Assembly (NCBI GenBank): GCA_033763455.1
Contig: JANRKO010000047.1
Coordinates: 1-64,000, forward strand
Reading direction: 5' to 3'
Origin: Polyangiaceae bacterium
GTDB lineage: Bacteria > Myxococcota_A > Polyangia > Polyangiales > Polyangiaceae
DNA: 64,000 nt
A program made the position numbers and the translations under genes. This document shows, piece after piece, positions 5,915 through 37,970 of this stretch; positions within the stretch are counted from its first letter, which is position 1; every line of letters starts with the position of its first letter. Under the pieces are notes generated by a model. It did no database searches. It saw only the letters and a list, made by a program, of their open reading frames with translations, and was not told the origin of the DNA.

Positions 5915-5916
5915 CT

Positions 5917-20085: not shown

Positions 20086-20158
20086 GCGGGAGTAGCTCAG
20101 TTGGTAGAGCACAAGCTTCCCATGCTTGGGGTCGTGGGTTCGAATCCCATTTCCCGCT
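20086..20158 (+). tRNA. tRNA-Gly(CCC), integration target
   Basis: Cloverleaf GCGGGAG/TTCCCGC, anticodon arm caagc-ttCCCat-gcttg, GTTCGAATC T-loop, U73 discriminator. Confidence 0.95.
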
Positions 20159-21428
20159 CAGAATGATTCCGAATAGTTAACTCAGTTTCAGAACCCAGCA
20201 CGGCCCGATTTCTTGCACGGGCCGTGCTTAAAAGCTGGGGCTGGGCAGCAAGGGGCAATTCCTTTGCCGTTCCCGTGTCCCGTAGGTAACGATCATGCGC
20301 TTCGTGGGTGGAGTGCCCGGTGAGCTCCATCGCGGTCTGTGAGTTGGTTCCGGAGCGCGCCAGGGCCTGAGCGTACATCCGGCGCCAGCTGTGGAAGTCC
20401 ACGGGGAAGTAATCCTCGCTCCCTTCGAGCAAGTCCCGCTCACGGCTGGTGAGTTTCCGCACGGGTTTAAATGTACTGGTGGCCGGGTCCCAAACATCGA
20501 CACCGAAGGCCCTTCGGAGGTCCCGCCGAAGGTGCCGGGCGTGGCTGTAGGGCTTGCGCCCTTCCCCTGCCCGCTTGCCCTTTCGAACGGGGAAAACCAA
20601 CCCATCCTTGGGGCTCTCGTGGAGCTCCCACCAATCTTTGAGGATCGGCCGGAGCATCTCAGGGATGGCCAGTTTCTGTGCCTTTCCCGTCTTGAGCCGT
20701 GGCGCCCGGCCTTCAACGAAGTTCCCGGCGTCCAGGTTTTCCCATCGGATGGCGTGAAGGTCTTGGGTGCGAAGGCCACCGAACAGGCGCGCAATGCATG
20801 CCATTGTTTGCCGCTCCAACACCGGCATGCGGTATTGAGGCAACGGGTGCTCCCAACCAAGATAGATGTTCAGCTCTTCATCGGTGAGAACGGCGCGCTC
20901 TCGCGTATCGATCTTGGCCTCCTCTGGGATATCAAGCAGATCCATCAGCTGGGGGATTCGTGGATCTTCTTTCCGAAGCCGCTTCCAGACTGAACCGATA
21001 TCGCCGCGAATGTGGACGCACATTTGTCGGCTCAGCTTGAGCTTGGCTGCCGCGTCCAAGACGTCTTGAAGCTCCCCAACCCCGATACGGTTGATAGGTT
21101 CGGCTCCAATGTGCGGGAACACGTACTTCTCAAGCCGCTTGAGCCGGGCCCCTTTCGTCTTGATAAGGCGTTTTTCAACGGCACGGCGTGCCGCTTCCTC
21201 GAATGTCTCCGAAGTTCGCTCAGCGATCGCCTTCACCTTTTCGGGTGAGTCGGTTTCCCGGAGCATTCGGGCCAGCTTTGCCCGTGCGGCGGCCTTGTGG
21301 ATGGTATTGAGGTTGTAGGCCTTCTGCACAGATTCGCCGCTGACGTAGATGGTTAGGCGTGCGCGCCATCCTGACTTGGCCCAGTAGAGTGAGCCGGTGC
21401 GCGGCCGTCCGCGTGATTCAGTTGCCAT
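20097..21428 (-). CDS. int: Tyrosine recombinase/integrase (integrated-state allele reads through att into the tRNA)
   Basis: Catalytic motifs GLRTQD, RLKTG, FHSWRR, LTGHS, DRYL. Confidence 0.9.
   Translation of the reverse strand: MATESRGRPRTGSLYWAKSGWRARLTIYVSGESVQKAYNLNTIHKAAARAKLARMLRETDSPEKVKAIAERTSETFEEAARRAVEKRLIKTKGARLKRLEKYVFPHIGAEPINRIGVGELQDVLDAAAKLKLSRQMCVHIRGDIGSVWKRLRKEDPRIPQLMDLLDIPEEAKIDTRERAVLTDEELNIYLGWEHPLPQYRMPVLERQTMACIARLFGGLRTQDLHAIRWENLDAGNFVEGRAPRLKTGKAQKLAIPEMLRPILKDWWELHESPKDGLVFPVRKGKRAGEGRKPYSHARHLRRDLRRAFGVDVWDPATSTFKPVRKLTSRERDLLEGSEDYFPVDFHSWRRMYAQALARSGTNSQTAMELTGHSTHEAHDRYLRDTGTAKELPLAAQPQLLSTARARNRAVLGSETELTIRNHSEREMGFEPTTPSMGSLCSTN
20114..20162 (+). repeat. 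attL core (49 bp)
   Basis: Identical to 37922..37970. Confidence 0.95.
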
Positions 21429-22278
21429 GTGACTGTCTCCTTGAACGCCGATCGCGCTTCCGCTGGTTCTTACTCTTGCTTAACCCTGTCCCCTGAAAGA
21501 CCCGCGTGGCATGCGAGAGCGCCGCCGCGTCCCCCATTTTCATTCGGGTATCTTGGATCGCCCTGAAGCCCTGTCGGTCGCTTTCGTCGGACGGGAGTTC
21601 GGCAGCATCGAAGACCATTTCACCGTTCGCCCACCGCTCCGCCGCGTTAGGCTCTGTGAGCGCGACGTGCAGCGCGTTTGCGAGCTCAAAAACACGCCCA
21701 TCTCTAAATGCTTTCGTTAAGCCGTCGCTCTGCCCTTTGTTGGTTGCCTCACCCAACCCCAGGATAATTGGATTCACGGGAATGGCGTCGAGCGCCAGAG
21801 TGTCAAAGAACTTGCCACAAGCTGCCCGGCTGAGCGAGGCGTAAGACCTACATGTTAAAGGGCGTTCGTCATACACGGTACATGTCCCGCTTTCCTCATG
21901 CAACAAGGGGCATGGGAGGCGTGCGGTAGCTCGTTCCGTAGCTCGCAGCCCACGAAAACGCAGAGCCGCTTGAGCTACTTTTTCACGCATCCTGAGGAAC
22001 TGGGAATCCGGGAGCGACTCCTTGAGGTACCAGGCAATGAGAATAGCCTCGGAGGCGAGAACCTCCGTTTTCATGTGACAGCAGTAGGAGCACCCCTTGT
22101 GGCACTCCGGAACGCCGTGGGCGTTGATTGTCTCACCGTATATCGTGAACCGGCGCTGGATACGCTCGTGAGCGCCCATCGCAATCCTTAGTGGACTCTC
22201 CGCGTTCGCGTTCTCCAATTCCTGGGCGACGTAAGGAAGCTCCTCGCGATACGCGCCCAGCATAAGATCATCAAGCAT
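21418..22278 (-). CDS. YkgJ/CxxCxxCC-family cysteine cluster protein
   Basis: CHKGCSYCC...CPLL...CTVYDERPLTCR. Confidence 0.85.
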   Translation of the reverse strand: MLDDLMLGAYREELPYVAQELENANAESPLRIAMGAHERIQRRFTIYGETINAHGVPECHKGCSYCCHMKTEVLASEAILIAWYLKESLPDSQFLRMREKVAQAALRFRGLRATERATARLPCPLLHEESGTCTVYDERPLTCRSYASLSRAACGKFFDTLALDAIPVNPIILGLGEATNKGQSDGLTKAFRDGRVFELANALHVALTEPNAAERWANGEMVFDAAELPSDESDRQGFRAIQDTRMKMGDAAALSHATRVFQGTGLSKSKNQRKRDRRSRRQSHGN

Positions 22279-22516
22279 TGTTCCTACTCCCTTCGAGCTT
22301 CCCGAGCTTCATTGCGATCGCCAAAATAAGCTGGGCGAGCCGCAATAAACCTGCATAGACGCTGGCTTGCGTTTGCGCCCGCGAGTTCGGGTCAACGCTC
22401 ACTACCTCTTTGTTCGCATGGCGACGCATCTCGATACCGATGGTTTGGACCTCGTGGCAGGCATCGGCTATCTGCATCGCGAGGTTCTGCCTGGGTGAAC
22501 CTGTAAAGGCGTTCAT
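22271..22516 (-). CDS. Hypothetical protein
   Basis: Overlaps both neighbours, GGGAGG RBS. Confidence 0.6.
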   Translation of the reverse strand: MNAFTGSPRQNLAMQIADACHEVQTIGIEMRRHANKEVVSVDPNSRAQTQASVYAGLLRLAQLILAIAMKLGKLEGSRNNA

Positions 22517-22902
22517 AGCGGCACCCTCCCGCCGAAGCGTGGATCGCCGCCACACTTGGGATCAGTGACCGAGGGAAGAAGGCCCCCAAAGCTGGTGTAT
22601 CCAAAGTCACCACGCGCGCGCATTCGTGCTATATCGATGGGCCTCCCAAAGCTATGCGGTCGATAATCGCTGAGCTGAACCACACGGCTTTCCAGTGCCT
22701 TGGCTTCGCGAAGCTGGCATCGATGGCTGGTGACACCGATGGTGAGACCTCGGAGGAGCGACACGGTAACGCAATCGATGCTTTGGGGTGGCACCCATAG
22801 GCCGGGATTGTCGAGCTCCCTTTTTGTTTTGCAGGTGAGGATCTTCTCAAGTTCGCGCCTGGCTTCCTCGTAGCCCGGGAGGTCCCTTAGCTGGCGGCTC
22901 AT
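22513..22902 (-). CDS. Hypothetical protein
   Basis: ATGA overlaps on both sides. Confidence 0.55.
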   Translation of the reverse strand: MSRQLRDLPGYEEARRELEKILTCKTKRELDNPGLWVPPQSIDCVTVSLLRGLTIGVTSHRCQLREAKALESRVVQLSDYRPHSFGRPIDIARMRARGDFGYTSFGGLLPSVTDPKCGGDPRFGGRVPL

Positions 22903-23117
22903 TGGGGCACCTCTACAAGCTGAACGTCTTCGCGGCCGTCGAGCGCATCGTGCGCGGACACGAGCTCCACCGATAAGTCTAGGAGCTTCTCCAAGAGGTC
23001 ACGCTTATTCGTTTCGATGCTCTGCATGTGCGCCATCGAAATGGCGTCCAAGAGCATCTTGCGGCACACGTCCAAGTAATGAAAGGTGGAGCCGATCGCG
23101 TCATCGCTCATATTCAT
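22899..23117 (-). CDS. Hypothetical protein
   Basis: ATGA overlaps on both sides. Confidence 0.6.
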   Translation of the reverse strand: MNMSDDAIGSTFHYLDVCRKMLLDAISMAHMQSIETNKRDLLEKLLDLSVELVSAHDALDGREDVQLVEVPQ

Positions 23118-23395
23118 TGCGCACCGCCCTTCGGCGCGAAGTCCCCGCGCAAGATGTCAACGAAGGTGAACGCCTCGTAGGCCCCCTTGCAGGCCGCTTC
23201 GAGAGCCTCGTGGAACTCGGAGTCGTCCCCGTTCGCGAGCCCCATGACGTCGGAAAGGCTCGCTCTGAGGCGAGTGAGCGACTCGTGCGCCCCCTCCAAG
23301 TTGTCGATGTGGTGTCGCCAGCGCTCGTGGAGCTCTGCGGGTGCTTCGGCTGGCGGTGTGGGGTGCTTTTTTGCTGTGTTTTGTGTAGGATTCAT
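23114..23395 (-). CDS. Hypothetical protein
   Basis: Helical ORF ending KGGAQ, coupled to the next gene. Confidence 0.6.
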   Translation of the reverse strand: MNPTQNTAKKHPTPPAEAPAELHERWRHHIDNLEGAHESLTRLRASLSDVMGLANGDDSEFHEALEAACKGAYEAFTFVDILRGDFAPKGGAQ

Positions 23396-23470
23396 TTCGC
23401 TTAGTTCCTTCTTCGGAGGAGCTAGGCCATGTGGCTCGGCTGCTAGTAACAGCGCGGGCCACACTCATGG

Positions 23471-23665
23471 CTAGCGGGTTGTTTTGGGTTTGGTTGTCTT
23501 GGGCTTTACCTTGGGCTGAAGCCCGTTGGCTTGGGAGTACTGCCGAAGCACGTAGCGCAGCGCATCGGCGCGGGTCACTAGACCCATCTTCTGCTTCACG
23601 GCATCAAGAATAGCGAGGTCGTCGCTACCAAGCCGGAAAGCTGTTTGAATTAGTAAATCTTTCAC
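23471..23665 (-). CDS. Ribbon-helix-helix (CopG-like) regulator
   Basis: TAFRL..DDLAILDAVKQKMGLVTRADALRYVL. Confidence 0.65.
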   Translation of the reverse strand: MKDLLIQTAFRLGSDDLAILDAVKQKMGLVTRADALRYVLRQYSQANGLQPKVKPKTTKPKTTR

Positions 23666-23795
23666 GTTCAGTATGTATAACGGTCGGTTGACTCTTTCGG
23701 CAACCAAATTCAACCCAACCCCCTCACTTTTCCGTAAGCTCGCGAGATCATTCCATATTCCACACCCCGCACGGTTCTACCACTTCGGACAACGC

Positions 23796-24152
23796 CTAGA
23801 GGGTGACTACCTCGGTAGTTATCTTGCGTACGTGGGTACACGGGGATAGGCGCGGTTTGGAGCTCAGGAGGCCGTAACCGGCTCCGCTTCGTTCCCGCCG
23901 CTGGAACGCTCCAAAGCTCGCTAAAGCACCTCCGGAGCCAGCGTCCTTCACTACGTCTGGCGCGCGGGTTACGGCGCGTAGGCGTTCTGCCTTGGCGTGC
24001 GGGATAGGTTGCCCCTCATCATGAGGGCTAACCTCCTTGGGCTTGCTGTGCTGGTTCTTTCCAGCTGGGTTTGGCGTGGTTGCCGCCTCCGGCACGGTCT
24101 CAATCTGCAGGACTCTTTCAATCTCGTCCGCCGGCTTCCCGCGCTTGGCCAT
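23796..24152 (-). CDS. Hypothetical protein, possibly truncated
   Basis: ORF with GKNQHSK motif. The C-terminal part is unconvincing. Confidence 0.35.
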   Translation of the reverse strand: MAKRGKPADEIERVLQIETVPEAATTPNPAGKNQHSKPKEVSPHDEGQPIPHAKAERLRAVTRAPDVVKDAGSGGALASFGAFQRRERSGAGYGLLSSKPRLSPCTHVRKITTEVVTL

Positions 24153-24460
24153 GCCGGCAACGAGGAAGGGGCGCGCCAGAGAAGCTAACAGCTGCCACCC
24201 AGCGGGCAGGTAGCAGGCCGAAAACACGCTGAATTCGACGGGCCCGAAGATGGCATTTCGGGTGCTCTGGCAGTGTGTTTCGGGCAGGAATCATGCTGTT
24301 TGGTCGACGGACTCGGTTTCTCTAGAGCTGCTCCACACGGTCGAAAGGCTGGCTTTCGTGAGTTTTGCATGCTAGTGCACGTCCCGCTGCACTAGGCGGG
24401 AATCGTCCAGTTTCGTTGCTCCGCGGGCACTAATCCTGCCCCCGGCGGACCGCGATATTC

Positions 24461-24910: not shown

Positions 24911-24923
24911 GCTCCTGCCTTTC

Positions 24924-25208: not shown

Positions 25209-25218
25209 TCACGAGCAG

Positions 25219-25248
25219 TGTCTACGGCCGGCTTGATGTTTGATCAAG
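25219..25248 (-). promoter_or_regulatory. TA promoter/operator
   Basis: cttgat-N5-atcaag palindrome, identical to 1540-1569. Confidence 0.55.
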
Positions 25249-25359: not shown

Positions 25360-25596
25360 TCAAAGCCGCTCCCTTGGCACGCCGGCCGCCAGGCAGGCAG
25401 CCCGGGCCGCATTCGCCGCCAGCGCAATCTCAACCTTCAGGAGCTGGGGCACCCGAGGGTCGCGGGCAGTCTCATGTTCACGCACGGAGGCGCGATCGTA
25501 GGCGTCAAGGAGCTCTAGCTGCTCCGGCGTGAGGCTTTCCCGACGGCGCTCCTCTGCCTCGTTGAAGATGGCGCTGATGCGTTGGCCGGGCGTCAC
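25360..25596 (-). CDS. Small helical protein, paralog of 27791..28057
   Basis: LTPEQLELL...AAGVPRERL, GTGA overlap with the tape-measure-like gene stop. Confidence 0.6.
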   Translation of the reverse strand: MTPGQRISAIFNEAEERRRESLTPEQLELLDAYDRASVREHETARDPRVPQLLKVEIALAANAARAACLAAGVPRERL

Positions 25597-27779: not shown

Positions 27780-27790
27780 GGTAGTTTCCC

Positions 27791-28057
27791 TTAGAGGCTT
27801 AGTCTTTCGCGAGCAACGCCCGCGGCTATGGCCGTCGCAACGGCCTGTTCGTACTTCTCAACGAGAATGTGGGCCTCTGGCTCTCCAGAGACGATCGCTG
27901 CATTGGCGGCCGTGCGGGTGCCATCGGCTTCGGCCAAGAGGTTCATTTGTTCCGCCGTTAACCCACGGTAGCGCGCAAAGAGGAAACGGACCGTAGCGCA
28001 GGCTATGCGCGTGGATTCTGCCTCAAGTTCATCGATGTTTTCGGGGGTGATGTGCAT
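27791..28057 (-). CDS. Small helical protein, paralog of 25360..25596
   Basis: LTAEQMNLL...AAGVARERL. Confidence 0.6.
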   Translation of the reverse strand: MHITPENIDELEAESTRIACATVRFLFARYRGLTAEQMNLLAEADGTRTAANAAIVSGEPEAHILVEKYEQAVATAIAAGVARERLSL

Positions 28058-28058
28058 A

Positions 28059-28190
28059 CTAGTTGACCTCCACATCATCGGGCTCGGGCTCATACTTGGC
28101 GGGCTCCGGAGCGGGAACGGGCTCGGGGTATTCGATGGGAGGCCTCTCCGACGGGTACAAAACTGGAACGGGAGGGCGTGAATCTGTCAT
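28059..28190 (-). CDS. Pro/Glu-rich small ORF
   Basis: 43 aa, ends just before the next ATG. Confidence 0.35.
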   Translation of the reverse strand: MTDSRPPVPVLYPSERPPIEYPEPVPAPEPAKYEPEPDDVEVN

Positions 28191-28362: not shown

Positions 28363-28704
28363 TTACGCCGCTTTTGGCGGCTCGGGTTGCTCCATCCCGT
28401 TCATTTGGGCGAAGAGATAATGCGCAGTTGTTCGAGGTGGGTGGGGGTTTTCAACCTGCCGAAGCTTGGGCAGTGCTGCAGCCTCTTCGGCCTGTCTGGC
28501 GATATCCAAAGCGCGTCGCTCGAAGTCGAGCGCGGCAATGTTGGTTTGCTGGAAAAGGACCGCCTCATCGCCAATGGCCCTCAGCTCACGTTGGAGCTGT
28601 GAGACACGGGCGTAGTCCCGCGCCTCGTTCGCCTTGTCGATTTCGTCTTGTTTCGCGCGGTGCGTGTTTCGCAGGCCAGCAAGGTGTTCTGTTTTTGTGG
28701 TCAT
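28363..28704 (-). CDS. Hypothetical coiled-coil protein
   Basis: ATGA overlap with the upstream gene. Confidence 0.65.
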   Translation of the reverse strand: MTTKTEHLAGLRNTHRAKQDEIDKANEARDYARVSQLQRELRAIGDEAVLFQQTNIAALDFERRALDIARQAEEAAALPKLRQVENPHPPRTTAHYLFAQMNGMEQPEPPKAA

Positions 28705-29099
28705 GGAAAGCGCGGCCCCTCGGTAAATGCGATCACTACAGAGAACGGCCTGTCTTGGCTGGGGAGTGTGCCGTCCGCGATCTCACTACCACCGTTATCC
28801 ATTACGGCGAATGTGAGATCCGTTCCTCCAACCACGGTCACCGGACCCAAGGACATTTGTTGCGTTGGATTTGATGCCTTGGTGGCGGGGATGCCGCACA
28901 TCGCATGCAATATTGTTGCTTTTTTGCCGTCGCGGCGTTGGAGCGCGATGCCGGTGGGGACGGCTGTTAAGGTGGCGTTGTCCGCCTGCGCGTACGTGCC
29001 CGCTAAAGTGAAGGTGACTAGCGCCAGGTTGTACCCTGCCACGTCCTTGTCGACCCTGAGGTGCTGTATTCCTGTAAATACGCCTGAGATTGTAGCCAT
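28701..29099 (-). CDS. Beta-rich putative virion structural protein
   Basis: Thr/Val/Gly-rich 132 aa starting MAT, downstream of terL. Function inferred from composition only. Confidence 0.5.
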   Translation of the reverse strand: MATISGVFTGIQHLRVDKDVAGYNLALVTFTLAGTYAQADNATLTAVPTGIALQRRDGKKATILHAMCGIPATKASNPTQQMSLGPVTVVGGTDLTFAVMDNGGSEIADGTLPSQDRPFSVVIAFTEGPRFP

Positions 29100-29146: not shown

Positions 29147-29698
29147 TTAGACGAAGTTTCGCTGGTCAGAGGGGTGCACCGGGGCGGCACAGCTTACGCG
29201 ATTCTGAACGAAGTCGGATCGGAAGTTGTTCCGGAGGTAATTGGCGAGTGCCCCCTCATAGTCATCGAATCGACATGATAGGGCGTGATCGCGAATCACT
29301 TTCCCGGCTAGAGCGGTTTGTCCAAAGCAAATATGATGATGGATTTGGTATTTGGCTCTCCAGGCGGTGCTGAAGTGCGGGAACCTATCTTCAAGCGTTG
29401 AAGGGAGGGAGGTCCAAGAATCTATGATATCGCCCGAAGCGTTGAGCTCCGGAGCGAGGCACTTGCCGTCTATTTCTCGCTTACTTCCGGTTTCGCGGAA
29501 CGAGACAAATTCGCTAGTCTTTAGCAGGCTCGGATCGGCCAGGAGTGCGGCCCGAAGGGTAGGCGCCTGCGATGGCGTACAGACAAAGCCCCCTCGGGTG
29601 AGGATTCTCAGCGCTTCGATCCAATCCTCGCTTTCTATTGCTGCATTGAATGCCTCAAGGGCTTTCGGATCTTGATTGATGTTAGTGTGCGTTTGCAT
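29147..29698 (-). CDS. Hypothetical protein
   Basis: 183-aa ORF with AAGG RBS after terL. Confidence 0.6.
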   Translation of the reverse strand: MQTHTNINQDPKALEAFNAAIESEDWIEALRILTRGGFVCTPSQAPTLRAALLADPSLLKTSEFVSFRETGSKREIDGKCLAPELNASGDIIDSWTSLPSTLEDRFPHFSTAWRAKYQIHHHICFGQTALAGKVIRDHALSCRFDDYEGALANYLRNNFRSDFVQNRVSCAAPVHPSDQRNFV

Positions 29699-29711
29699 TG
29701 TGTGCCTTTCT

Positions 29712-31232
29712 TTATGTGAAGATTGCCGCCATGTGGGCGTTGGTTTCAGGGCTTCGGCGCCCCGATATCTTGATGGGCGAGCCAGGAATGAGCCCTTCGG
29801 CGTCAGCTATCATGGAGAGGATGACGGTAGCGGCGCGGTCGTCCCTTCCCTGGCTCTTGCCAGAGAATTTGAGCACGCCACTACTGCGAATTATCTCTGA
29901 ATATCGCTTTAACTGCAACCGCAATTCGGTGTCCCCAGGATGGAAGATAACCTGGCGGTCCGCGAGCAATCGGCGCAGCCGCACAACCGCTTGTTCTTTC
30001 TGAGGCGCCGTTACGTCGACAGGGCGGAACTGGATCTGAAAGCGGCGAAAGTGGGAGGCAAACCCGTTGGCTCCGAATTGATCACCCACGACCCGGCAAG
30101 CGTTCCAATCCCACGCCGTGCGGTAGATTGAAGCCGCAACGTCTTCTTCACGTTCATAGAAGTTCGTACCTTGAAAAGGGCCAAACTCCAGGTAAGGGGC
30201 GGTGAAGTGTTCAGCCCCGGGCTTGAGCAGGGGGCGGGCGTTGTGGTCTCGAAGAACCTTGCCGTTAGCTTGCTGGTAGAGCTCCTCAACAATGTTCCCT
30301 TCGCTATCAGTGAGGGGCCGCGTAAAATCAAGCGGCTCACCAAGGAAGTGTTGGCGCCAGACGCATGGAGCCCATGCCGTTTCGTCGCGACCCAACCCGC
30401 GGGAGGCATCCATCACCACGATCGGGTAATCGAGGGCTTTGCCCTGGCGGTTGTGCTTGAATGCCGCATCGATCAAATCGGCATCGAAGGCCGCGCTAAT
30501 GCTCGCCTGTGGGATTGCTGCATACTCGCGTGCCCATACACGTTCGTCCGGTTCAAGCCGTTTGGTCTGCTCTTTGGTGATGCTGGGATTCGCTACCCAC
30601 GTAGCCGCTTCGCAGAAATATTGAGATTCATCCGTGCCAAGGGCGCACCGATCGAAGTGGTAATCTGTTGTCCCGAGTGGACTGCTCACCAAGATGCGAC
30701 GGGCGCCCGGGTGGGTGACTGTCATCGCGTTCAAGGAGGCGCACACTTCGGCGGCTGGATTGGCTAGGTCAGACTGAGAGCGCCACTTGCTGAGCTCATC
30801 GGCGCTGTATCCGAAGCAGCGGAAGCCGGACACCGCGCCCACCTGGCACGCAAACACCCGCCAACCCCGGGGCATGTGGCGCAAGATGATCTCGTCACCG
30901 TTGCGATCGAAGGCAATCGAGAGGTCTGAAAGCAGGCGCTCGATAAGGCGAAGCCGTTGGGAAGCCTCATCCTTGTTCTGGCTGACGTAGGCCCAGAAGT
31001 GGATCTCACCGGGTGGAATGCTCCAATCGGCAAAGAGAACTTCGTTCACGCTGAGCTTGGTTTGGCTGTGGCTCTTAACGCCACCCCGTCCAACGCGAGC
31101 AACGAACGTCCTAGCCGTTGGGTGCTGATAGAACGCGCGGTAGTGGCCCTGCCACCACTCGGGAAGCGGCTGGTGTCCACGGGATACCCACTTGGAATCC
31201 AGGCCCATGAGGCTTTCGAAGGTGGCGGTCAC
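29712..31232 (-). CDS. terL: Terminase large subunit-like protein
   Basis: Walker A-like RVGRGGVKS, Walker B YSADE, motif III VSSP, W.REY.A linker, nuclease VMDAS...DETA and RDD. Confidence 0.8.
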   Translation of the reverse strand: MTATFESLMGLDSKWVSRGHQPLPEWWQGHYRAFYQHPTARTFVARVGRGGVKSHSQTKLSVNEVLFADWSIPPGEIHFWAYVSQNKDEASQRLRLIERLLSDLSIAFDRNGDEIILRHMPRGWRVFACQVGAVSGFRCFGYSADELSKWRSQSDLANPAAEVCASLNAMTVTHPGARRILVSSPLGTTDYHFDRCALGTDESQYFCEAATWVANPSITKEQTKRLEPDERVWAREYAAIPQASISAAFDADLIDAAFKHNRQGKALDYPIVVMDASRGLGRDETAWAPCVWRQHFLGEPLDFTRPLTDSEGNIVEELYQQANGKVLRDHNARPLLKPGAEHFTAPYLEFGPFQGTNFYEREEDVAASIYRTAWDWNACRVVGDQFGANGFASHFRRFQIQFRPVDVTAPQKEQAVVRLRRLLADRQVIFHPGDTELRLQLKRYSEIIRSSGVLKFSGKSQGRDDRAATVILSMIADAEGLIPGSPIKISGRRSPETNAHMAAIFT

Positions 31233-31762
31233 GGCTTGGCCCCGATCGCGGCGTTGATCTCGTCCAGAACCCGTTGGGTTGAGTTTTGCTGTGGGCGGGA
31301 CCGATGGATGCGCTCGGCCTCATCTCTCGCGGTGACGGCAAGGCGCTCGGCCCTAGCGTCCAGCTTGAGCGACATGTCTAGGAGCTTTGACCCCTGCTCA
31401 TCGAACAGCCCCTGTTCCACCGCCTTGGCTGCGAACCTGGCAGAGAGCACGGACCACCGTGCCCGGCGGGCAATGAGATCTTGAACCTCGGGTGAGTCGT
31501 TCGAAGGTAGGCTTGTGAGCAGCTTGCGGAACAGCTGAAGGGAATCCTTGTACAGCTGGGCTACTTCTTCGGTGCCCGCACTGGGGCCGAGCTGCTTCCG
31601 GATGATGGCTTTGATGGCACGCTCCTCCGCGGCTCGGTTGCCCGGGGCGAAACGACCTCCCGCAACCCGATTACCGTCCGGTTTGGGCGCCGAATACTCG
31701 GGAAGGTTCTTGCGCCGGGGAGGCTGGGGCCTGAGGCGCTTGTGTTCATTGACGCGGGCCAT
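31229..31762 (-). CDS. Putative terminase small subunit
   Basis: GRFAPGN motif, helical, GTGA-coupled directly upstream of terL. Confidence 0.5.
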   Translation of the reverse strand: MARVNEHKRLRPQPPRRKNLPEYSAPKPDGNRVAGGRFAPGNRAAEERAIKAIIRKQLGPSAGTEEVAQLYKDSLQLFRKLLTSLPSNDSPEVQDLIARRARWSVLSARFAAKAVEQGLFDEQGSKLLDMSLKLDARAERLAVTARDEAERIHRSRPQQNSTQRVLDEINAAIGAKP

Positions 31763-32055
31763 TACGCAACCCCTCCCGTGCGCGCGTGCGTATTGGTTAG
31801 TTCCCAATCCAGCGTCTGCCCGGTGGTAACGTCCAGAACCTCGCCGCTGTTGTCCCGGACGGTAACCCGCCACCTAGCGCCATTGGTGGGTTGGGCGCTG
31901 AACACTTGGGGCTGAACACCAGAGGCCTCAGGAGCGACCGCGGAGAGAAGCAGCGTGCCTAGCGCGGTCCGGCGGGTGAAACGCAGTCCTGGGCCATCCT
32001 GGCGAAAGCGCGGGGCGGAAATGGTGGGGTTCGGTGAGGGGGTAGTATCAGGCAT
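31762..32055 (-). CDS. Hypothetical protein
   Basis: GGAGGAG RBS, TAATG overlap with the next gene. Confidence 0.55.
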   Translation of the reverse strand: MPDTTPSPNPTISAPRFRQDGPGLRFTRRTALGTLLLSAVAPEASGVQPQVFSAQPTNGARWRVTVRDNSGEVLDVTTGQTLDWELTNTHARTGGVA

Positions 32056-32482
32056 GGGTGTGCTCCTCCGGCTCGGGCCGGGGTGGAAGGTGGACGGGAA
32101 GCCCGCCAACAAAACGCGGCATTTCGTGGGTGTTTTCGCTCCGTGCAGAAAATCCCGCGCAAGAAAGCAATCTCTGCCCAACAGAGAGTAAGCGGGAATC
32201 ATGCTGTTTTCGTGCGCCAAGCCCTAAGCTGCCTACGCTTGTGTTCGTTGGGTCGGATGGATGATTGCCGGCGTTGGCGGCGTCAGCTCCGATCAACGTC
32301 GCGAACGAGGGGCGCAGACCACTCGCTAGAAGGCCCCGTGCTGCTCCTGAGCGCCTCTGTGGCTTCGTTTCACGAGGTGCACCCAAGATGCCCAGGCCTG
32401 CCAGGGGGGCAAATGCCGGGTCTGAGATTCCGGGTTTCGGTGCCCACGTGTGTGGCGCTGGTATATCCAATGGCCCCCAGAC

Positions 32483-32648
32483 CGTGTGCTGACTCTCTCT
32501 GGCTAACCAGTGCTGAAGGCCGTCGTGTTCGGACCGTGTGTCGTGTGCTGGCCCCCCTAGTACCCCCCGTGCGTGAGCACACGACACGCTGGGAGCGTGT
32601 GTCGGTGCACACACACGTGTGCTGGCACACTCAACACACGGCACACGC
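32483..32648. repeat. Cluster of GTGTGCTG-type direct and inverted repeats, candidate replication origin
   Basis: gtgtcgtgtgct (32538) and agcacacgacac (32576) are inverted; cgtgtgctggc occurs at 32542 and 32616. Confidence 0.55.
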
Positions 32649-32649
32649 C

Positions 32650-34407
32650 TCATGATTGCACCTCAGCTTTTGCCCACTGCCTGGCGCTCCTTTGGCGACC
32701 GTCGCTCAGGTCAACGGCTCGCCCTGTTTCCAGAAGCTCAGCCATGGTGTTTAGGATCCGGTGGGCTCCCCACTTGTGCCCCCGCTTCTCCAGAGCCACT
32801 TCGAGCGCTCCCCGGCTGAACGTGTTCGGCTGCTCAGGCAGAAGGCTTTCCACCAAGTCGCAGTCCGCCCTGAACCCAACCTGAACCCGGGCCTGTTTGG
32901 CTTCCGCCTTCACTTCGGGCGACGCATGCTCACGGAGACCCGAAGCCGCTCGGAGCTCCTCGGCTTCCTCGGGCGTTGCAGCCCTAAGGACACCCGAGGT
33001 GCGGAGCCAACCGCCACCCGGGAGTTGTTCGTCTTGCATGCGGACCAGCCACAAGGGGTCAGCCTCGGGCGCCAGGTTGTTCTTCGAGTTTTCGAGCAAC
33101 ACGCCCTGAAGCTCAGCCGTCCGAACCTTGCTCAGTGTGAAGGCCGCCCTGAAACCGTTGCGTAACCCCGTTACACCTCGAACATCGGCCCCGCCAGCCC
33201 TGCCACTCGTCTTTGAGCTGTGGTGCGTCACCATGACGCCGGGCTCACCCGTGACACGAATAGCAATCGATTCGACGGCCTGAACAAAGGCGGTTGCAAG
33301 CCCGTTGTCTGATTCAGCGTTGCCTGAAGCGAACCTAGCAAGCGGATCGATTGCAACGAACGCCCATTCGAACCCACCCTTTTCGGCTTCATCGTTCAGC
33401 CGCTGAACTATCGCCTCCAAGAATTCGGTGCGCCGGGGATTGTGCGCTTGATCCACTGACAAGAAAGAAACCTCGTGCCCCGTCAATAGGAATAACAAGA
33501 TCTTCTCTTGGACCTGAAGCCTCTCCTCTGCACCCAAGCCGAGCGCGTTGCAGATCCGATAGAGCCGATCCTGACATTCTTCGGCGTCATCCTCACCCAT
33601 GAGGAGCGCAATGCGTCCGCAGTTAACCTCCGGTTGAAAGGCATCAAACAGCTTGCGCCCGAGGCCCAGGCAGACAGCCATCAAAAGAGCAATGAACGAC
33701 TTGCCCACGCCGCCATCGGCTGCAAGTACGAACACTTTCCCGCGGCGGAGTAGCGGCACGGGCTTGCCTGAGCGGACGTCGTTAAACAACCAACGGCGCT
33801 TGGGCGGTTCGGTAGCTAGATCTAAACTGCTCAGCCAAATTGCTGGCAATTCCATTGGCTTCTGTCGTTCGAGAAGGAGCAAGAGAGCGGCGGCTTTGGG
33901 CCATTCCTTTTGCTCTATGAGTTCCAGAATCTCAGCGATCAGGGTCGCCGTTTCGGCTGATTCCTCTTCCGTGCTCGCCTCGCCAGACTCCGGAGCATCG
34001 TCGGAATCATGCGCTGAACCATTCGTTCCCCTGCCGTTGGTGTGCGGCCTCTCGGCTCTTGGTGGCGCCTGCCTCGGCTGCTTCTCGCCGGCACCAAATG
34101 CACTATTGAGCGTGGCCCTAATCTCCCCATCTCCAAGCCCGCATTGCTTGGCCGCATGGTGTAAAGCCGCGCGGGCCTCGGCTTCACCGAGCTGGCCACC
34201 TGATACAAGTTGCGCGACCGAAAAGGCCGACGTGTTCAGCTGATTATTTCGTTCGCCTTCGGCTGCCGAGGCTACCGCGGAGCATTCGCGCTCAAGTGCC
34301 GCCCTACCGTACGGCGTGCCTCCGTCGACGGCCTTGGCCCGCGGCGTTGAATCATTCGCCGGCTCCGGCCGTTTGCGGTTCTTGCCGATTGCTTCTTCCC
34401 AGCTCAC
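32650..34407 (-). CDS. RecA-like replicative helicase (AAA_25/RepA type) with N-terminal primase-accessory-like region
   Basis: GERNNQLN..AF, Walker A ADGGVGKS, FVAIDPL, VTHHSSK, RG...L, KNN. Confidence 0.8.
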   Translation of the reverse strand: MSWEEAIGKNRKRPEPANDSTPRAKAVDGGTPYGRAALERECSAVASAAEGERNNQLNTSAFSVAQLVSGGQLGEAEARAALHHAAKQCGLGDGEIRATLNSAFGAGEKQPRQAPPRAERPHTNGRGTNGSAHDSDDAPESGEASTEEESAETATLIAEILELIEQKEWPKAAALLLLLERQKPMELPAIWLSSLDLATEPPKRRWLFNDVRSGKPVPLLRRGKVFVLAADGGVGKSFIALLMAVCLGLGRKLFDAFQPEVNCGRIALLMGEDDAEECQDRLYRICNALGLGAEERLQVQEKILLFLLTGHEVSFLSVDQAHNPRRTEFLEAIVQRLNDEAEKGGFEWAFVAIDPLARFASGNAESDNGLATAFVQAVESIAIRVTGEPGVMVTHHSSKTSGRAGGADVRGVTGLRNGFRAAFTLSKVRTAELQGVLLENSKNNLAPEADPLWLVRMQDEQLPGGGWLRTSGVLRAATPEEAEELRAASGLREHASPEVKAEAKQARVQVGFRADCDLVESLLPEQPNTFSRGALEVALEKRGHKWGAHRILNTMAELLETGRAVDLSDGRQRSARQWAKAEVQS

Positions 34408-35042
34408 GGAAGCACCGCCGGTTCCTGGCAGTTGACCCACCGGTACGTTGCGCCGCTGGCATGCCTGCTCGGACCCACAACGATTTGACCGCCACGGCTC
34501 CGAACGTCGATGCCCGGTGCTATCCGTACCGCATTGCCGAAGTTGGCTGAATCTGAAACTCGAAATAACAAGTGAAAGCCTTTGGCCGTCTTGGCCGTGA
34601 GAGTTTGCGGGAGTTTCCCGTGCTCAGCTTCGAGCGGAGCTAAGAGTTCAAGCGCGCCATCCACATCGATCGCGATCACATCGAACCCACCAGGCTGCGG
34701 CCCCATGCGGAGACCAACGTTCAAGCGCCAGTCTTTCTCCAAGCCAGCAAGCAACGCCGGAACGTCGAGCGCTGCAGACTGCCATCCCTGCGCAACGGGA
34801 TGTTTGCCGGCTGCCCCACAACCAGGCCGGCCACAGGTGCACGAACCATCGGCGGCAATGCCGTGTAGCAAGATCGGATGTAGCCCAAGCTTGGCGTAAA
34901 TGCGGATGGCGTCGAGCTTGTCTGTTTGGGCGATCCATTGAAGCCGATCCCACCCCTGCAACTGCAACGGGGAAGCCGAATCCATCAGCCGCTGAACCTC
35001 AGCCTCTGGAACAATCGCATAGGGATCGGGCTTGGTGCTCAT
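34404..35042 (-). CDS. Bifunctional DNA primase/polymerase (Prim-Pol)
   Basis: CTCG..C..GKHP, NVGLRMG, IDVD, T.KG.HLLF, DVRSRGGQIVVGPSRH.SG..YRW. Confidence 0.9.
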   Translation of the reverse strand: MSTKPDPYAIVPEAEVQRLMDSASPLQLQGWDRLQWIAQTDKLDAIRIYAKLGLHPILLHGIAADGSCTCGRPGCGAAGKHPVAQGWQSAALDVPALLAGLEKDWRLNVGLRMGPQPGGFDVIAIDVDGALELLAPLEAEHGKLPQTLTAKTAKGFHLLFRVSDSANFGNAVRIAPGIDVRSRGGQIVVGPSRHASGATYRWVNCQEPAVLP

Positions 35043-35356
35043 GCTTCGCCCCTGCACTGCCGACACACGACGCCTTGGCCCTTGGTCCACCACACGCGAT
35101 CGCCGACATCAATGGCCCGGGCGCAATCGCGACAAAAGCTGTTGAACCGCGAATCAATCCACCGCCCAGGTGATGCCGGTTGGCTCGCCCGCGCAGCTGG
35201 AGCGAGTGCTTGGCACTGACCGGGCTCGTGGAGCTGCAAGCCATGTTCAGCGATCATTTTCGCTAGGATGACGCCACAGGTTCGCGCCTCTTCGGGAGGG
35301 GTGCCAGAGTGCGCGGCACGACTGACTAGCGCCAGGGCGCGTGCCGCGATGCTCAC
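35039..35356 (-). CDS. DUF2786-like N-terminus plus C-terminal zinc finger
   Basis: AL...A...TPPEEART......KMI..HGL and CRDC...CRQC. Confidence 0.55.
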   Translation of the reverse strand: MSIAARALALVSRAAHSGTPPEEARTCGVILAKMIAEHGLQLHEPGQCQALAPAARASQPASPGRWIDSRFNSFCRDCARAIDVGDRVWWTKGQGVVCRQCRGEA

Positions 35357-35799
35357 CTGGAACCCCGCGGAGCTGGCTTGCCACAGCCAAGATGTGCAGA
35401 CTTTTTCAGCTCGCGATGATAGACAATCGAGTCGCCAACCTGGTACCCATTGCCACAAACCACGCACTTGCCGGCATATTTTGATTCCATCGGGATTCCC
35501 ACGAACGGGCTCGGCACCGACATATCGGGCTCACCGCGGGTAGCCTGTGCTTGTGCCGCCGCGGGCTGGCTAGCCACCTCGGAGCGCAGCTTGGTGAGCT
35601 CCTCGATTACCTGAGGAAGCTCCCTATCCCGAAGTGTGCAGCCCTTCTTGGTGGGCAAAAGCTGCCCCGAATCCCCTCGAAAGAAGATCCGCAGGTCCGT
35701 GAACGGCTTACCGTTGTAGGTTTTGCGTGAGATCCGGAGTGTATCGGTGCCACGCTCAAACTCCAAAAGCACCACTCCGTCGGAGTCGTTTTCGCTCAT
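35353..35799 (-). CDS. PC4/YdbC-family ssDNA-binding protein plus zinc finger
   Basis: LRISRKTYNGKPFTDLRIFF..G.LLPTKKG.TL and CVVC...H..C. Confidence 0.8.
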   Translation of the reverse strand: MSENDSDGVVLLEFERGTDTLRISRKTYNGKPFTDLRIFFRGDSGQLLPTKKGCTLRDRELPQVIEELTKLRSEVASQPAAAQAQATRGEPDMSVPSPFVGIPMESKYAGKCVVCGNGYQVGDSIVYHRELKKSAHLGCGKPAPRGSR

Positions 35800-35975
35800 T
35801 GTGCCGCCTCGCTCACCCAAAACTCAGGAGTAAGAATGCAGCGCAATTCCCACCCTTGGGAGCGCCGAAGCTCGGAGGCGTCAATCTTCCCACGCGCTGC
35901 GGACAAGGCCTGAGCAACTTCGTACTCGCCATTTTCAATGGCACGCCGGATCTCGCGATCAAGTGCGGCGCTCAT
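35796..35975 (-). CDS. Small hypothetical protein (59 aa, below the ORF-track cutoff)
   Basis: MSAALDREIRRAIENGEYEVAQ..., ATGA overlaps on both sides. Confidence 0.55.
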   Translation of the reverse strand: MSAALDREIRRAIENGEYEVAQALSAARGKIDASELRRSQGWELRCILTPEFWVSEAAQ

Positions 35976-36133
35976 CGGGTCCGCCTCCCAGCCTTCGCGG
36001 CCTCGCGAAACAGCCCGGCAACCTCGCGTGAAATGGACCGGTGCCGGCGCGCCTGTTGGATCGCCAGGATGCGTTGGCGTTGCGATTCCCGGGCGTTTGC
36101 CGTGGTAGTGGGCTCAACGTGAACGGCGCTCAT
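35972..36133 (-). CDS. Small hypothetical protein
   Basis: ATGA overlaps on both sides. Confidence 0.5.
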   Translation of the reverse strand: MSAVHVEPTTTANARESQRQRILAIQQARRHRSISREVAGLFREAAKAGRRTR

Positions 36134-36432
36134 TTTCCGCCGCTCCCGGTTGCGGCCAAAACTTCCGACCACAGGTATCGAGGCGAGTCGCCGACCTTAC
36201 GGACTGGCAATTTGCCTGCCTTTGTCATCTTGTGAACCGTGGTTGAGCTCACGCTCAACCGCTGTGCCAGCTCCGAAGCTGAGAGGAGTCTCTCAGCGTC
36301 TGAAACTTCATCGGCGAGAGTTGCCCCACCAAGCCGCTGAATTATCACGTCGGCCACAGCGCTGGCCAGTTCGCCGCAGGTCGCGTGAACTGCCAACTTG
36401 CTTTCTAATGAATCCTTGATTAAAGTGCTCAT
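36130..36432 (-). CDS. Excisionase-like winged HTH (HTH_17)
   Basis: LLSASELAQRLSVSSTTVHKMTKAGKLPVRKVG..RY. Confidence 0.8.
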   Translation of the reverse strand: MSTLIKDSLESKLAVHATCGELASAVADVIIQRLGGATLADEVSDAERLLSASELAQRLSVSSTTVHKMTKAGKLPVRKVGDSPRYLWSEVLAATGSGGK

Positions 36433-36514
36433 TGTCTCGATCCTTTGCGCCCCGCTGCTAGAAACAGTTGGGGCGCACGCTTTTCAGCGTCCGGAGCCCA
36501 AGGGGCATTGATGG

Positions 36515-36712
36515 TTATGCAGCCTTTGCAGCCGTTAAGCGCTGCTCAAGCAGTAAGATGGTCCCTGGTGTCACCGGCAAACCGGCAGCAAGACGCATGA
36601 CGGTAGTGTCTGAAATGCCCAGCAAAGCGCTGGTTTTTCGTACCGATCGTTCAGTGATCAGGTCACGGACCTGTTTGACTAGATATGGACTTGCGGAGAT
36701 TGGCTTGGCCAT
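36515..36712 (-). CDS. Small HTH (Cro-like) protein
   Basis: SVRKTSALLGISDTTVMRLAAG. Confidence 0.6.
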   Translation of the reverse strand: MAKPISASPYLVKQVRDLITERSVRKTSALLGISDTTVMRLAAGLPVTPGTILLLEQRLTAAKAA

Positions 36713-36762
36713 GTGGCACCTCTAATCAGGTGTGCCGCAATGGATTCGCTTCTATCTCCGCG

Positions 36763-37719
36763 CTACCGTTTGGCCTTTTTTCTGCGGGAATTATTTTTTT
36801 TGAGGCTCAAAGTGAAGTCCTCAACTAGAGCCCGTGCCGTACGCTTCGAACCACCCTTGTTGAGCCCTACCGATTCCCGCATCTTGTCGATCGCAGTGGC
36901 AGTGAGCTCCGGCGGGACTTCGAGATCCTGAGCTAGCAGGTAGGCCCGGATCTCCTCGCCACTCGCCGGGCCCCAAAACGAGCCAGTGGCGCTCTCCTCC
37001 CGCATTCGAACAAGCTTGGCTTCAACCTTGGCAAAGGCGGGATCCGGCGTCCGTTTAGTTTTGCCGTGTTCCTTTCGCAGGCGTTCCTCTTCCCGGTGCC
37101 TCGCGTCCATTTCCAGTTGTGCGGCTAGGGAGTCTGACCAAGAAGCTCGTTCGCCATAGCGGTAGCCAAAAAGTGCTTCGAAGGCTTGTTCCAGCGCCGA
37201 TGAGCGCTCGAACATCATCATTCCTCCGCGTGCACCACGGAGTAGCGGGGCAAGATCTACTTGCGCACCACCTGCGTGGAAGAGGTGGCCAAGGCTGACT
37301 AGCAGACTCTTGGCGATTGCCTCTGTGCGGGGCGACGGATCGCAAAAGACCTTCGTCGTCCGCCATAGCATTCCGTCGCGATACTCAAAGCCAGCCGGGG
37401 CCCGCTTCTTGTCGTGCCGCCCTTTCTGGTCACGCTGCAAGTGAACACCCGCCGCGTCTCGCTCGTGACGTGTGTTGAGGCCTCGGCTCTCAGGCTCTCC
37501 AGACTGACCTTGCAGGTTATCGAGGAGCGCCATGACTTTAGCCATCGTGGCTTGGACAGAAGGGTGCCCCGGGTGCTTCCGAATTACTTCGTCAAGCTCT
37601 CCCAGTGTCTCTATTAAACCGCTGCCGTCTTGACTCCTTCGCGGAGGCGGCACCACTTTTAGCTTGACCCTCTCAGGCTTCTTCGGTGGCACCTTCCCCA
37701 TCGCGGCGACGGCCATCAT
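36763..37719 (-). CDS. Hypothetical protein
   Basis: 318-aa ORF whose ATG overlaps the stop of the attP-form integrase tail. Confidence 0.6.
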   Translation of the reverse strand: MMAVAAMGKVPPKKPERVKLKVVPPPRRSQDGSGLIETLGELDEVIRKHPGHPSVQATMAKVMALLDNLQGQSGEPESRGLNTRHERDAAGVHLQRDQKGRHDKKRAPAGFEYRDGMLWRTTKVFCDPSPRTEAIAKSLLVSLGHLFHAGGAQVDLAPLLRGARGGMMMFERSSALEQAFEALFGYRYGERASWSDSLAAQLEMDARHREEERLRKEHGKTKRTPDPAFAKVEAKLVRMREESATGSFWGPASGEEIRAYLLAQDLEVPPELTATAIDKMRESVGLNKGGSKRTARALVEDFTLSLKKNNSRRKKAKR

Positions 37720-37921
37720 AGCGCCCAGCCTTGCTGCTGGACTAGGCTACCCAGCATGCTTCGGATGTACGCGCGGGCGGCGCAATCGGCGGCAATCCAG
37801 CGGTTTCTTTCTTGCACCGAATTCTTGCATGGAGATACAGAATCCGCGCTTTTATCACCTACCGCGTTTGAGCCCGGCCCACTGGACAAGCCAGAAACAT
37901 CCTGATTCGAACCAAAAGCAC
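37716..37921 (-). other. Detached 3' end of integrase (attP-form C-terminus)
   Basis: Open frame continuing MGFEPTTPSMGS from the att core for 68 codons. Confidence 0.65.
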
Positions 37922-37970
37922 AGCTTCCCATGCTTGGGGTCGTGGGTTCGAATCCCATTTCCCGCTCAGA
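37922..37970 (+). repeat. attR core (49 bp, duplicated tRNA-Gly 3' half)
   Basis: agcttcccatgcttggggtcgtgggttcgaatcccatttcccgctcaga. Confidence 0.95.

Follow-up and report, generated by a model that had tools for sequence, protein, structure and literature searches.

A tRNA-integrated island of a Polyangiaceae-type myxobacterium with its own large terminase and a tape measure gene but no capsid genes, a possible helper-dependent phage satellite

The island described here occupies positions 20114–37984 (~17.8 kb) of a stretch of 64,000 nucleotides from contig JANRKO010000047.1 (assembly GCA_033763455.1), hereafter called the window, and is integrated at a tRNA-Gly gene of a Polyangiaceae-type myxobacterium. 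It encodes a large terminase subunit (TerL) and a tail tape measure protein (TMP) next to genes for integration and replication, and no room is left in it for a portal plus capsid. The attachment (att) sites form a direct repeat of 63 nt that is identical at 59 of 63 positions and exact over the first 49 nt, with a spacing of 17,808 bp, and the 3' end of the integrase gene reaches 63 nt into the tRNA-Gly gene (20097–20159) on the opposite strand. All of the 24 open reading frames (ORFs) are on the minus strand, with transcription running from 37.9 kb towards 20.1 kb, and they cover about 88% of the island. Successive genes meet at 23 junctions. Nine of these have overlaps of 4–43 nt (exactly 4 nt in five cases), and at two more, with overlaps of 55 and 115 nt, the start of the downstream gene is uncertain. 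All genes that could be recognised are full length. The GC content (0.598) is close to that of the flanks (0.594 and 0.604), which contain housekeeping genes, namely those for galactokinase, DnaE, guanylate kinase, glutamine synthetase and Ser/Thr kinases, and no phage genes were found in the flanks within the window. The initial annotation, made from the sequence alone, had described an att-bounded element of this size with intact and often coupled ORFs for an integrase, an excisionase-like protein, a PC4-like protein, a Prim-Pol, a helicase, a small terminase subunit (TerS)-like protein, TerL and a TMP, and with no ORF above ~185 aa between the terL and tape measure genes; the family, profile, fold and synteny evidence below agrees with all of this, with weak support for the TerS-like protein.

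The ORFs of the island were searched against Pfam, PHROGs and NCBIfam, and against PADLOC for defence models. As a single sequence TerL had no match in the first three of these libraries, and the same holds for the TerS-like protein and for the small ORFs between terL and the tape measure gene. Homologues of TerL number at least 228; of the 120 listed, not one bears a precomputed Pfam domain, and wherever the source names them they are labelled hypothetical, the named organisms being Polyangiaceae, Myxococcales and other metagenome-assembled genomes (MAGs). A profile made from 40 of the homologues matched the nuclease domains of the Thermus phages G20c and P74-26 in the PDB with an E value of 8.9e-9. 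The AlphaFold2 (AF2) model (pLDDT 89.6) has a two-domain fold with an N-terminal ASCE ATPase and a C-terminal RNase-H-like nuclease, and in Foldseek it is aligned over its full length to HK97 TerL (6z6d, E 1.9e-18) and also to those of Sf6, T4 and D6E, down to 1e-14, with separate matches to the isolated P74-26 ATPase and G20c nuclease domains at target-normalised TM scores of 0.63–0.75. Residues G48, R49, K53, D145, E146, S183, S184, D275, D384 and D465 are invariant in the 40 aligned sequences including that of the island, which retains all of the 22 columns that are invariant in the alignment, and by our own reading they should represent the Walker A motif, the D-E of Walker B, the coupling motif and the acidic triad of the nuclease. 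Since both the fold and the catalytic residues are kept, the protein looks like a genuine TerL and is by appearance catalytically competent. A tblastn search of 50,697 phage records gave a single weak match (E 0.03), and none was obtained in 72,556 plasmids.

The ORF preceding terL, whose stop overlaps the terL start, has a probable internal start that would shorten it to about 177 residues. In five of six loci with a related TerL, described below, a family of ~197 aa is found upstream of the terminase gene, adjacent to it in three and up to 2.5 kb off in two, and with a profile from these five proteins the island ORF 31229–31873 is the only match with an E value under the inclusion threshold among the six-frame ORFs of the island (E 0.0016). 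In an alignment with A4 it shows 25% identity, a common G-(G/K)-R-F-x-x-G-N stretch and a C-terminal motif. Its position and this weak family membership suggest that it is a TerS.

The 728-aa protein is also without a Pfam, PHROG or NCBIfam match as a single sequence, and the profile of its family retrieved nothing relevant from the PDB. The homology search gave 60 proteins including the query; seven of these carry a precomputed PF10145 (PhageMin_Tail) domain, and a direct search found this domain in 3 of 40 aligned family members, with 7e-8 as the best E value. Over its full length the protein is 39% identical (764 columns, E 1.8e-110) to the 729-aa product of the first coding sequence (CDS) of MW202476.1, a circular phage genome of 77,056 bp with a Mu-like contractile tail. 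The order of genes in that phage is a Mu-like sheath gpL, a 125-aa CDS, two small CDSs, the TMP homologue, the N-terminus of a DNA circularization protein, Mu gpP and baseplate J, and judged by these neighbours the 729-aa CDS is in the tape measure slot of a Mu-type contractile tail. Because a full-length homologue sits in the tape measure slot of a phage, the island protein is regarded as a genuine tape measure; the slot position holds for the homologue in MW202476.1, and the sheath, tube and hub neighbours are absent around the island copy. None of the other island proteins matches MW202476.1, and the island is therefore a mosaic. The 59 homologues measure 658–891 aa with a median of 736 aa. 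By the rule of thumb of 0.15 nm of tail per residue, 728 residues correspond to ~109 nm, equal to the value for the phage homologue. The initial annotation had proposed a tail-length or ejection component, with a length of ~110 nm; the protein is of normal length (728 against 729 aa in the phage, and near the median of the family), and a changed tail length is not indicated.

Of the small ORFs near the tape measure gene, those of 100 and 113 aa were considered as tail assembly chaperones. The 78-aa and 100-aa ORFs on its two sides end alike, with an ...AAGV(A/P)RERL C-terminus (BLASTP E 0.031), and may be distant paralogues that bracket the tape measure gene as a cassette. The 113-aa ORF matched in the PDB only a coiled region of Paf1, which was taken as compositional. 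A -1 frameshift of the G/GT type between the 113-aa and 100-aa ORFs was looked for and rejected, as there is no open -1 frame and the only ORF that overlaps is in the +1 frame.

No gene for a capsid, portal, protease, head-tail adaptor, connector, tube, sheath, baseplate, fibre or lysis protein was recognised among the island ORFs with Pfam and PHROGs. No ORF on either strand between terL and the tape measure gene exceeds 183 aa, and in the island as a whole the largest ORFs without assignment are 318, 183, 143 and 142 aa. To our knowledge portals are not smaller than ~300 aa, and capsid proteins of the HK97 fold begin at ~230 aa. There is thus no room for a portal plus capsid. Two proteins of the island were folded, TerL and the 132-aa protein, and the other ORFs were excluded by size and position. 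The family of the 132-aa protein has 43 representatives including itself, and its 30 nearest Atlas clusters by features have no Pfam family in common, the three shown being 85–100% viral (0.94). The model gave no Foldseek match in the PDB and BFVD at E<=1e-3, the best in BFVD being 5.5e-3 with TM scores of 0.46–0.52 to uncharacterised Caudovirales proteins of 112–115 aa; tblastn against the phage records gave nothing, and the family profile against the PDB nothing relevant. A tail tube was considered, as one of 39 family members matches a tail-tube PHROG (E 0.0094), but was rejected since the model has no match to a tube, Hcp, capsid or portal. By its predicted structure the 132-aa protein is accordingly not a capsid, portal or tube.

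Directly downstream of terL, where a portal gene usually lies, is the 183-aa ORF. Its only match among 5.8 billion proteins is itself, the Atlas gave no lead, and it is located in the kilobase with the lowest GC content of the window (0.547, 29001–30000). Possible readings are a remnant, an interference gene that evolves fast, or no gene at all.

As it has no gene of portal size, and as none for a capsid, protease, sheath, tube, baseplate or lysis function could be recognised, the island is unable to build a virion alone, and none of the portal, major capsid, tail tube/sheath or major tail, baseplate/tip and lysis genes that make up a complete temperate tailed phage was detected in it. That it should be a self-sufficient minimal virus with a capsid and portal too divergent or unusual to be recognised is hardly probable at all. 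Eleven of the island ORFs are without a family match at E<=0.001 in all libraries searched, and TerL and the TMP were themselves missed by the single-sequence family searches, which would suit such a virus; the sizes of the unassigned ORFs speak against it, the largest being a charged protein at the regulatory end, as do the 132-aa protein, which does not have a capsid fold, and the want of tube, sheath, baseplate, fibre and lysis genes. The reading that we lean towards, with a confidence a little better than even, is that the island is a helper-dependent phage satellite, i.e. an integrative island of a Polyangiaceae-type myxobacterium that resembles the phage-inducible chromosomal islands (PICIs).

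A single scan of species-representative genomes gave 23 pattern matches, six of which encode a relative (L001–L006), all in Myxococcota-type MAGs. TerL alone is common to all six loci, and the integrase and helicase are shared with L006 only, at 42 and 40% identity respectively. Loci L002 and L005 are cut by contig ends. Three of the others are bounded by att repeats, namely L001 (a 40-nt exact repeat at a tRNA-Leu, 16,395 bp), L004 (a 25-nt repeat, 15,064 bp) and L006 (a 49-nt repeat at a tRNA-Thr, 13,677 bp). These three share a layout with replication genes, TerS-like and TerL genes, and an integrase at the tRNA end; coding room for a portal plus capsid is lacking in all of them, and the single virion-related gene differs from one to the next. 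L001 encodes ERCC4, Prim-Pol, VapE, a TerS-like ORF, an ORF with PF18352, TerL, an MqsA-like protein and an integrase, and its largest ORF without assignment is 245 aa. L004 encodes a DnaB-type helicase, a TerS-like protein, a DUF2213 head maturation protease (phrog_530, 1.8e-49), TerL, a Schlafen-AlbA protein and an integrase. L006 has a helicase, a TerS-like protein, TerL, a 359-aa ORF with weak matches to tape measure PHROGs (E 0.012–0.25), a 450-aa baseplate-wedge-like protein (phrog_6, 7.3e-10) and an integrase. In three further cases the TerL and TMP homologues agree in source, contig count and longest contig (24,475, 15,241 and 3,792,860 bp), from which we infer that they are on the same contigs. 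The relatives found at the DNA level are only 36–53% identical in protein, and synonymous sites are for that reason saturated.

Some details of these loci may be added. In L001 the 223-aa ORF with the PF18352 domain (9330–10001, E 1.6e-12) has a stop that overlaps the TerL start by 4 nt; PF18352 is presumably the N-terminal domain of a phage central-spike protein, which if so would be an odd neighbour for a terminase. L004 contains a 90-nt tandem duplication, 98% identical with a spacing of 110, at 675–874 just beyond the left att site. In L006 two integrase-bearing elements (4812–6071 and 6072–19748) lie in tandem at one tRNA-Thr site, and TerL is in the inner one.

The sixth locus differs. 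L003, on a contig of 20.5 kb, has ORFs of 125, 85, 674 and 395 aa after TerL and then a 440-aa major head protein (phrog_14242, 5.9e-10); a PDB search with the 674-aa ORF gave nothing useful. The TerL lineage is therefore not restricted to capsid-less elements. Besides several islands without a capsid gene it includes at least one element that bears one, and the capsid-less state recurs with intact att sites. This capsid-bearing relative is one of the points that weigh against a satellite. L006, which is closest by gene content, has an integrase in three or four pieces and a helicase in two, through either decay or an error in the MAG assembly, and the 183-aa orphan with its low GC content could be a remnant. 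On the TerL tree the TMP-associated rows require two changes, and 71 of 500 shuffles are as low, so that there is no significant clustering. For the TerS-like protein the evidence is weak, with E 0.0016 obtained in a small search space and no support from the PDB or PHROGs, and no tail assembly chaperone is demonstrated, the 113-, 100- and 78-aa ORFs having no informative PDB or PHROG matches and there being no open -1 frame. The 64-kb window holds no helper prophage, a satellite TerL would have to dock on a foreign portal, and excision, replication, packaging and particles are predictions.

Several of these points would fit a defective prophage remnant in which the head genes and most tail genes were deleted and the rest is intact by chance or recently orphaned, with no life cycle of its own: the capsid genes after TerL in L003, the split integrase and helicase genes in L006, the low-GC orphan at the portal position, and the tape measure gene itself, which is a close full-length copy of that of a complete phage and lacks the usual tube, sheath and hub neighbours. 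We consider such a remnant rather unlikely. Three further att-bounded elements of 13.7–16.4 kb share the core and are also without portal and capsid, and the same outcome by independent deletions is unlikely. In addition all recognisable genes are full length with 22 of 22 invariant columns kept in TerL, the operon is tightly packed and, two intergenic gaps aside, free of pseudogene scars, the 49 nt of the att core are an exact repeat, and pairs of TerL and TMP recur on other contigs, one of them of 15.2 kb. A prophage reduced by a single clean deletion, the alternative given in the initial annotation, is weakened by the three capsid-less elements, yet the capsid gene of L003, two ORFs (674 and 395 aa) past the two small ORFs that follow TerL, still speaks for it in part.

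The remaining genes of the island, which are listed together with the features above in Table 1, are those expected for integration, replication and regulation, and a number of small ORFs. The MqsA-like protein with its helix-turn-helix (HTH) domain may be an antitoxin and/or a regulator of the element, and the DUF4258 protein encoded 13 nt from it is likely to be its toxin partner. An MqsA-like gene is also found in L001 (12608–13237) at the equivalent relative place, and the HTH protein may be a conserved regulator of such islands. An 18-nt motif (GCRGGAATCATGCTGTTT type) has three matches in the window, all intergenic and within the island, where 0.08 would be expected by chance, and may be a shared candidate operator, perhaps for the neighbouring MqsA-like protein. 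Of the 44 CGTGTG/CACACG hexamers in the window, 10 are within the 230 nt at 32430–32660, which is the densest spot. The replication origin of PICIs adjoins the replicase gene, and by analogy this segment is a candidate origin. The 318-aa ORF, the first gene inside the right att site (attR), had no match in Pfam, PHROG, NCBIfam, PADLOC or the PDB.

Table 1. Position of the features of the island and its integration site in the window, with the evidence for each
Feature	Position	Strand	Evidence or remark
tRNA-Gly(CCC), integration target, intact post-integration	20086..20159	+	ARAGORN; Rfam RF00005, 67.8 bits
Tyrosine integrase, 443 aa, last gene of the operon	20097..21428	-	PF00589 2.2e-10; phrog_1 1.1e-24
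att repeat, left copy: 3' 46 nt of tRNA-Gly and bases downstream	20114..20176	.	direct repeat
CxxCxxCC (YkgJ-type) Zn/Fe-chelating domain protein, 286 aa, cargo	21418..22278	-	PF03692 5.2e-9; no PADLOC match
Four small coupled ORFs: 94, 129, 72, 116 aa	22271..23464	-	overlaps 4-43 nt; no family matches
80-aa ORF, weak ribbon-helix-helix match	23471..23713	-	PF01402 E 0.0045, under curated cut-off
143-aa ORF	23796..24227	-	no family matches
18-nt motif (GCRGGAATCATGCTGTTT type), two copies upstream of ORF 23796-24227	24284-24301, 24396-24413	.	repeat search
MqsA-antitoxin-like Zn-ribbon and HTH protein, 149 aa	24461..24910	-	HTH_3 3.7e-9; MqsA_antitoxin 1.1e-6
DUF4258 protein, 94 aa	24924..25208	-	PF14076 6e-6; 13-nt gap to HTH gene
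78-aa ORF, overlaps TMP stop by 4 nt	25360..25596	-	no family match
Tail tape measure protein (TMP), 728 aa	25593..27779	-	homologue in phage TMP slot
100-aa ORF, 11 nt upstream of TMP; positional candidate tail assembly chaperone	27791..28093	-	position
113-aa helical ORF (coupled to the 132-aa ORF), another chaperone candidate by position	28363..28704	-	position
132-aa beta-sandwich protein	28701..29099	-	AF2 pLDDT 91.9
183-aa orphan ORF directly after TerL, usual portal position	29147..29698	-	ORF call
Large terminase subunit TerL, 506 aa, ATPase and RNase-H-like nuclease	29712..31232	-	fold and profile
TerS-like ORF, 214 aa; probable internal Met start (~177 aa)	31229..31873	-	4-nt overlap with TerL start
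18-nt motif, third copy, ~320 nt upstream of TerS-like ORF	32192..32209	.	repeat search
Candidate replication origin, CGTGTG/CACACG repeats and inverted repeats	32430..32660	.	directly past helicase stop
AAA_25 (RepA/DnaB-type) replicative helicase-like protein, 596 aa	32650..34440	-	PF13481 1.6e-26; phrog_906/6012
Prim-Pol primase/polymerase domain protein, 229 aa	34404..35093	-	PF09250 7.7e-26
142-aa ORF, relative of an L001 ORF	35039..35467	-	phmmer 2.3e-7
PC4-like ssDNA-binding protein, 155 aa	35353..35820	-	PF02229 5.4e-10
HTH_17 excisionase/AlpA-like protein, 100 aa	36130..36432	-	PF12728 5.9e-7; phrog_66, phrog_7735 excisionase
318-aa highly charged protein, first gene inside attR, regulatory end	36763..37719	-	ORF call
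att repeat, right copy	37922..37984	.	direct repeat

Around the boundaries, the tRNA-Gly gene is the sole match of an Rfam scan. Outside the island, upstream of this tRNA, is an exact 31-nt direct repeat with a spacing of 71 nt (19507–19537 and 19578–19608). At the other end of the island an 80-aa ORF (37716–37958) begins with the peptide MGFEPTTPSMGS, shared with the integrase ORF, since it reads through the att copy; it is probably not a gene. Directly beyond attR a minus-strand ORF of 386 aa (38100–39260) encodes a Gly/Ser- and Cys-rich protein without a Pfam match at E<=1e-5.

The cargo region with its toxin-antitoxin-like pair also bears on the possibility that TerL and the TMP are kept for interference, that is, that they poison or titrate the packaging and tail assembly of a superinfecting phage as an abortive defence while the island is rarely or never mobile. 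Defences that interfere with assembly are encoded by satellites and prophages, such as Rta of PLE11, which targets the helper TMP (PMC12987554), and the Tai systems, which block tail assembly (PMC11364771). We nevertheless regard this as distinctly improbable, as TerL retains its ATPase and nuclease catalytic residues and is accompanied in the family by a conserved TerS-like partner to which it is coupled, which is more than a decoy needs, and the island has a full set of genes for excision and replication; the PADLOC search gave no defence models besides generic HTH ones.

The proposed cycle of the island as a helper-dependent satellite, including its helper and the part played by the tape measure, may be pictured as follows. 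When a helper infects the cell or is induced, the island would excise and replicate from its own origin; this helper is probably a phage whose tape measure falls in the same length class and whose contractile tail is long and Mu-like. The TerS-like and TerL pair would then recognise and cut island DNA and pump it into procapsids of the helper, by which packaging specificity would be obtained without any capsid gene. The tape measure, with its small neighbours as possible chaperones, would replace the helper TMP in tails built by the helper, as in the PLEs (elements resembling phage-inducible chromosomal islands) of Vibrio cholerae, and the island may gain by escaping interference or immunity directed against the helper TMP, or by controlling DNA ejection. 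The other small genes and the toxin-antitoxin-like pair would serve as cargo or regulators. A satellite that supplies its own motor and a tail component is what the initial annotation had suggested, and the tail part has an experimental precedent in the PLEs (PMC12987554).

Taking the relatives into account, a broader proposal can be made, to which we give rather less than an even chance. The islands may belong to a widespread and undescribed family of Myxococcota satellites with a private and complete terminase, formed by a TerS-like protein and a deeply divergent TerL lineage of at least 228 members, with no capsid genes, and with a swappable slot for a single substitute of a helper part, which would be the TMP and chaperones here and a baseplate-wedge-like protein, a spike-domain protein or a head protease in the relatives. 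Such satellites would take over helper procapsids by means of the motor and not by capsid remodelling, and give chimeric virions with satellite parts in helper tails. The satellites known to us either rely on the terminase of the helper, which they redirect through TerS or by mimicking cos, or come with TerL and an entire capsid module, as do the capsid-forming PICIs (cf-PICIs). If the reading is true, an island with a complete motor and no shell would show that docking of a foreign TerL on a helper portal takes place in nature, and that packaging specificity alone can sustain a satellite life style. It would also extend the substitution of a tail core component, so far shown only in the Vibrio PLEs, to a distant phylum and a different architecture, support manipulation of tails as a general satellite strategy, and give first access to the biology of phage satellites in Polyangiaceae-type myxobacteria.

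Compared by gene content with the cf-PICIs, as these are described in the sources at hand, the element is alike in being a small island of similar size with an integrase, an AlpA/excisionase-type HTH protein, a primase-replicase module, a TerS (weak here) and its own TerL, and L003 of the same TerL lineage carries a capsid gene. The SatelliteFinder definitions tell cf-PICIs apart from PICIs by their TerL and treat tail genes as forbidden, and the median size of cf-PICIs is given as 14 kb (PMC10085698). Set against these definitions the island has terL, int, a regulator, pri-rep and, weakly, terS, but it has no capsid module, that is no capsid, portal, protease, head-tail adaptor or connector, it does have a tail gene, and its host is a member of the Myxococcota. 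The initial annotation had held that cf-PICIs are without tail genes, which is out of date, as putative tmp genes are reported in some cf-PICIs and PLE-like elements (PMC12987554, Extended Data Fig. 10 legend). To the classical PICIs, both of the SaPI type and from Gram-negative hosts, the island corresponds in being att-bounded and in the range of ~15 kb, with an integrase, excision and regulation genes, a pri-rep module with an adjacent origin (a candidate here), a TerS packaging module (TerS weak here) and cargo, as far as these are outlined in PMC10085698; it differs in encoding TerL and a TMP, whereas PICIs are there defined as having no other phage structural genes.

For the tail, the PLEs offer the best mechanistic model of the 728-aa gene and its small neighbours, by analogy. 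According to the portions of PMC12987554 (Nature 2026) drawn on here, all Vibrio cholerae PLEs encode tmp and tac, virions of PLE11 hold the PLE TMP and exclude that of the helper, and deletion of tmp in PLE1 and PLE4 lowers transduction by 96–99%. The island, known from its genes, is like them a putative satellite without capsid genes that has its own TMP, which the PLEs encode along with a chaperone and sometimes a baseplate hub and place in tails otherwise built by the helper; of the PLE-type pair of tmp and chaperone it has the tmp, and its 100- and 113-aa upstream ORFs are chaperone candidates by position only. PLEs are said to depend on the packaging machinery of the helper. The portions of PMC12987554 in question list no terminase gene for PLEs, in contrast to the complete TerL of the island, and the TMP of PLE11 differs by 95 aa in length whereas that of the island matches its phage homologue. 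The Extracellular Prophage-Inducing Particles (EPIPs) of Mycolicibacterium are described in a 2025 preprint as having TerS and a TMP, proposed to alter tail assembly, and a helper prophage (PMC12822802). Going by that description they resemble the island as small, helper-reliant satellites with TerS and TMP, but have a serine integrase and genes of the scaffold/capsid type and for a head-to-tail adaptor and stopper; in the portions of the preprint drawn on here a TerL is not among the genes named, and the host is of another phylum. VEIMEs, integrative mobile elements that are encapsidated in virions, are reported with TerS and 'motor-like ATPases' (PMC9618062). The phage MW202476.1 is similar in the TMP only, and the island is without its sheath/tube and hub neighbours. 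In the literature searched, mostly titles and the beginnings of abstracts, no satellite is described that has TerL and lacks capsid genes, and there is no paper on phage satellites of Myxococcota by title and abstract beginning. Tape measures encoded by satellites are already known from PLEs and EPIPs, and it is the combination of a TerL without capsid genes and a tape measure that appears to be new. In our reading of these comparisons the island would work in a way that comes closest to a cf-PICI where packaging is concerned and closest to a PLE where the tail is concerned.

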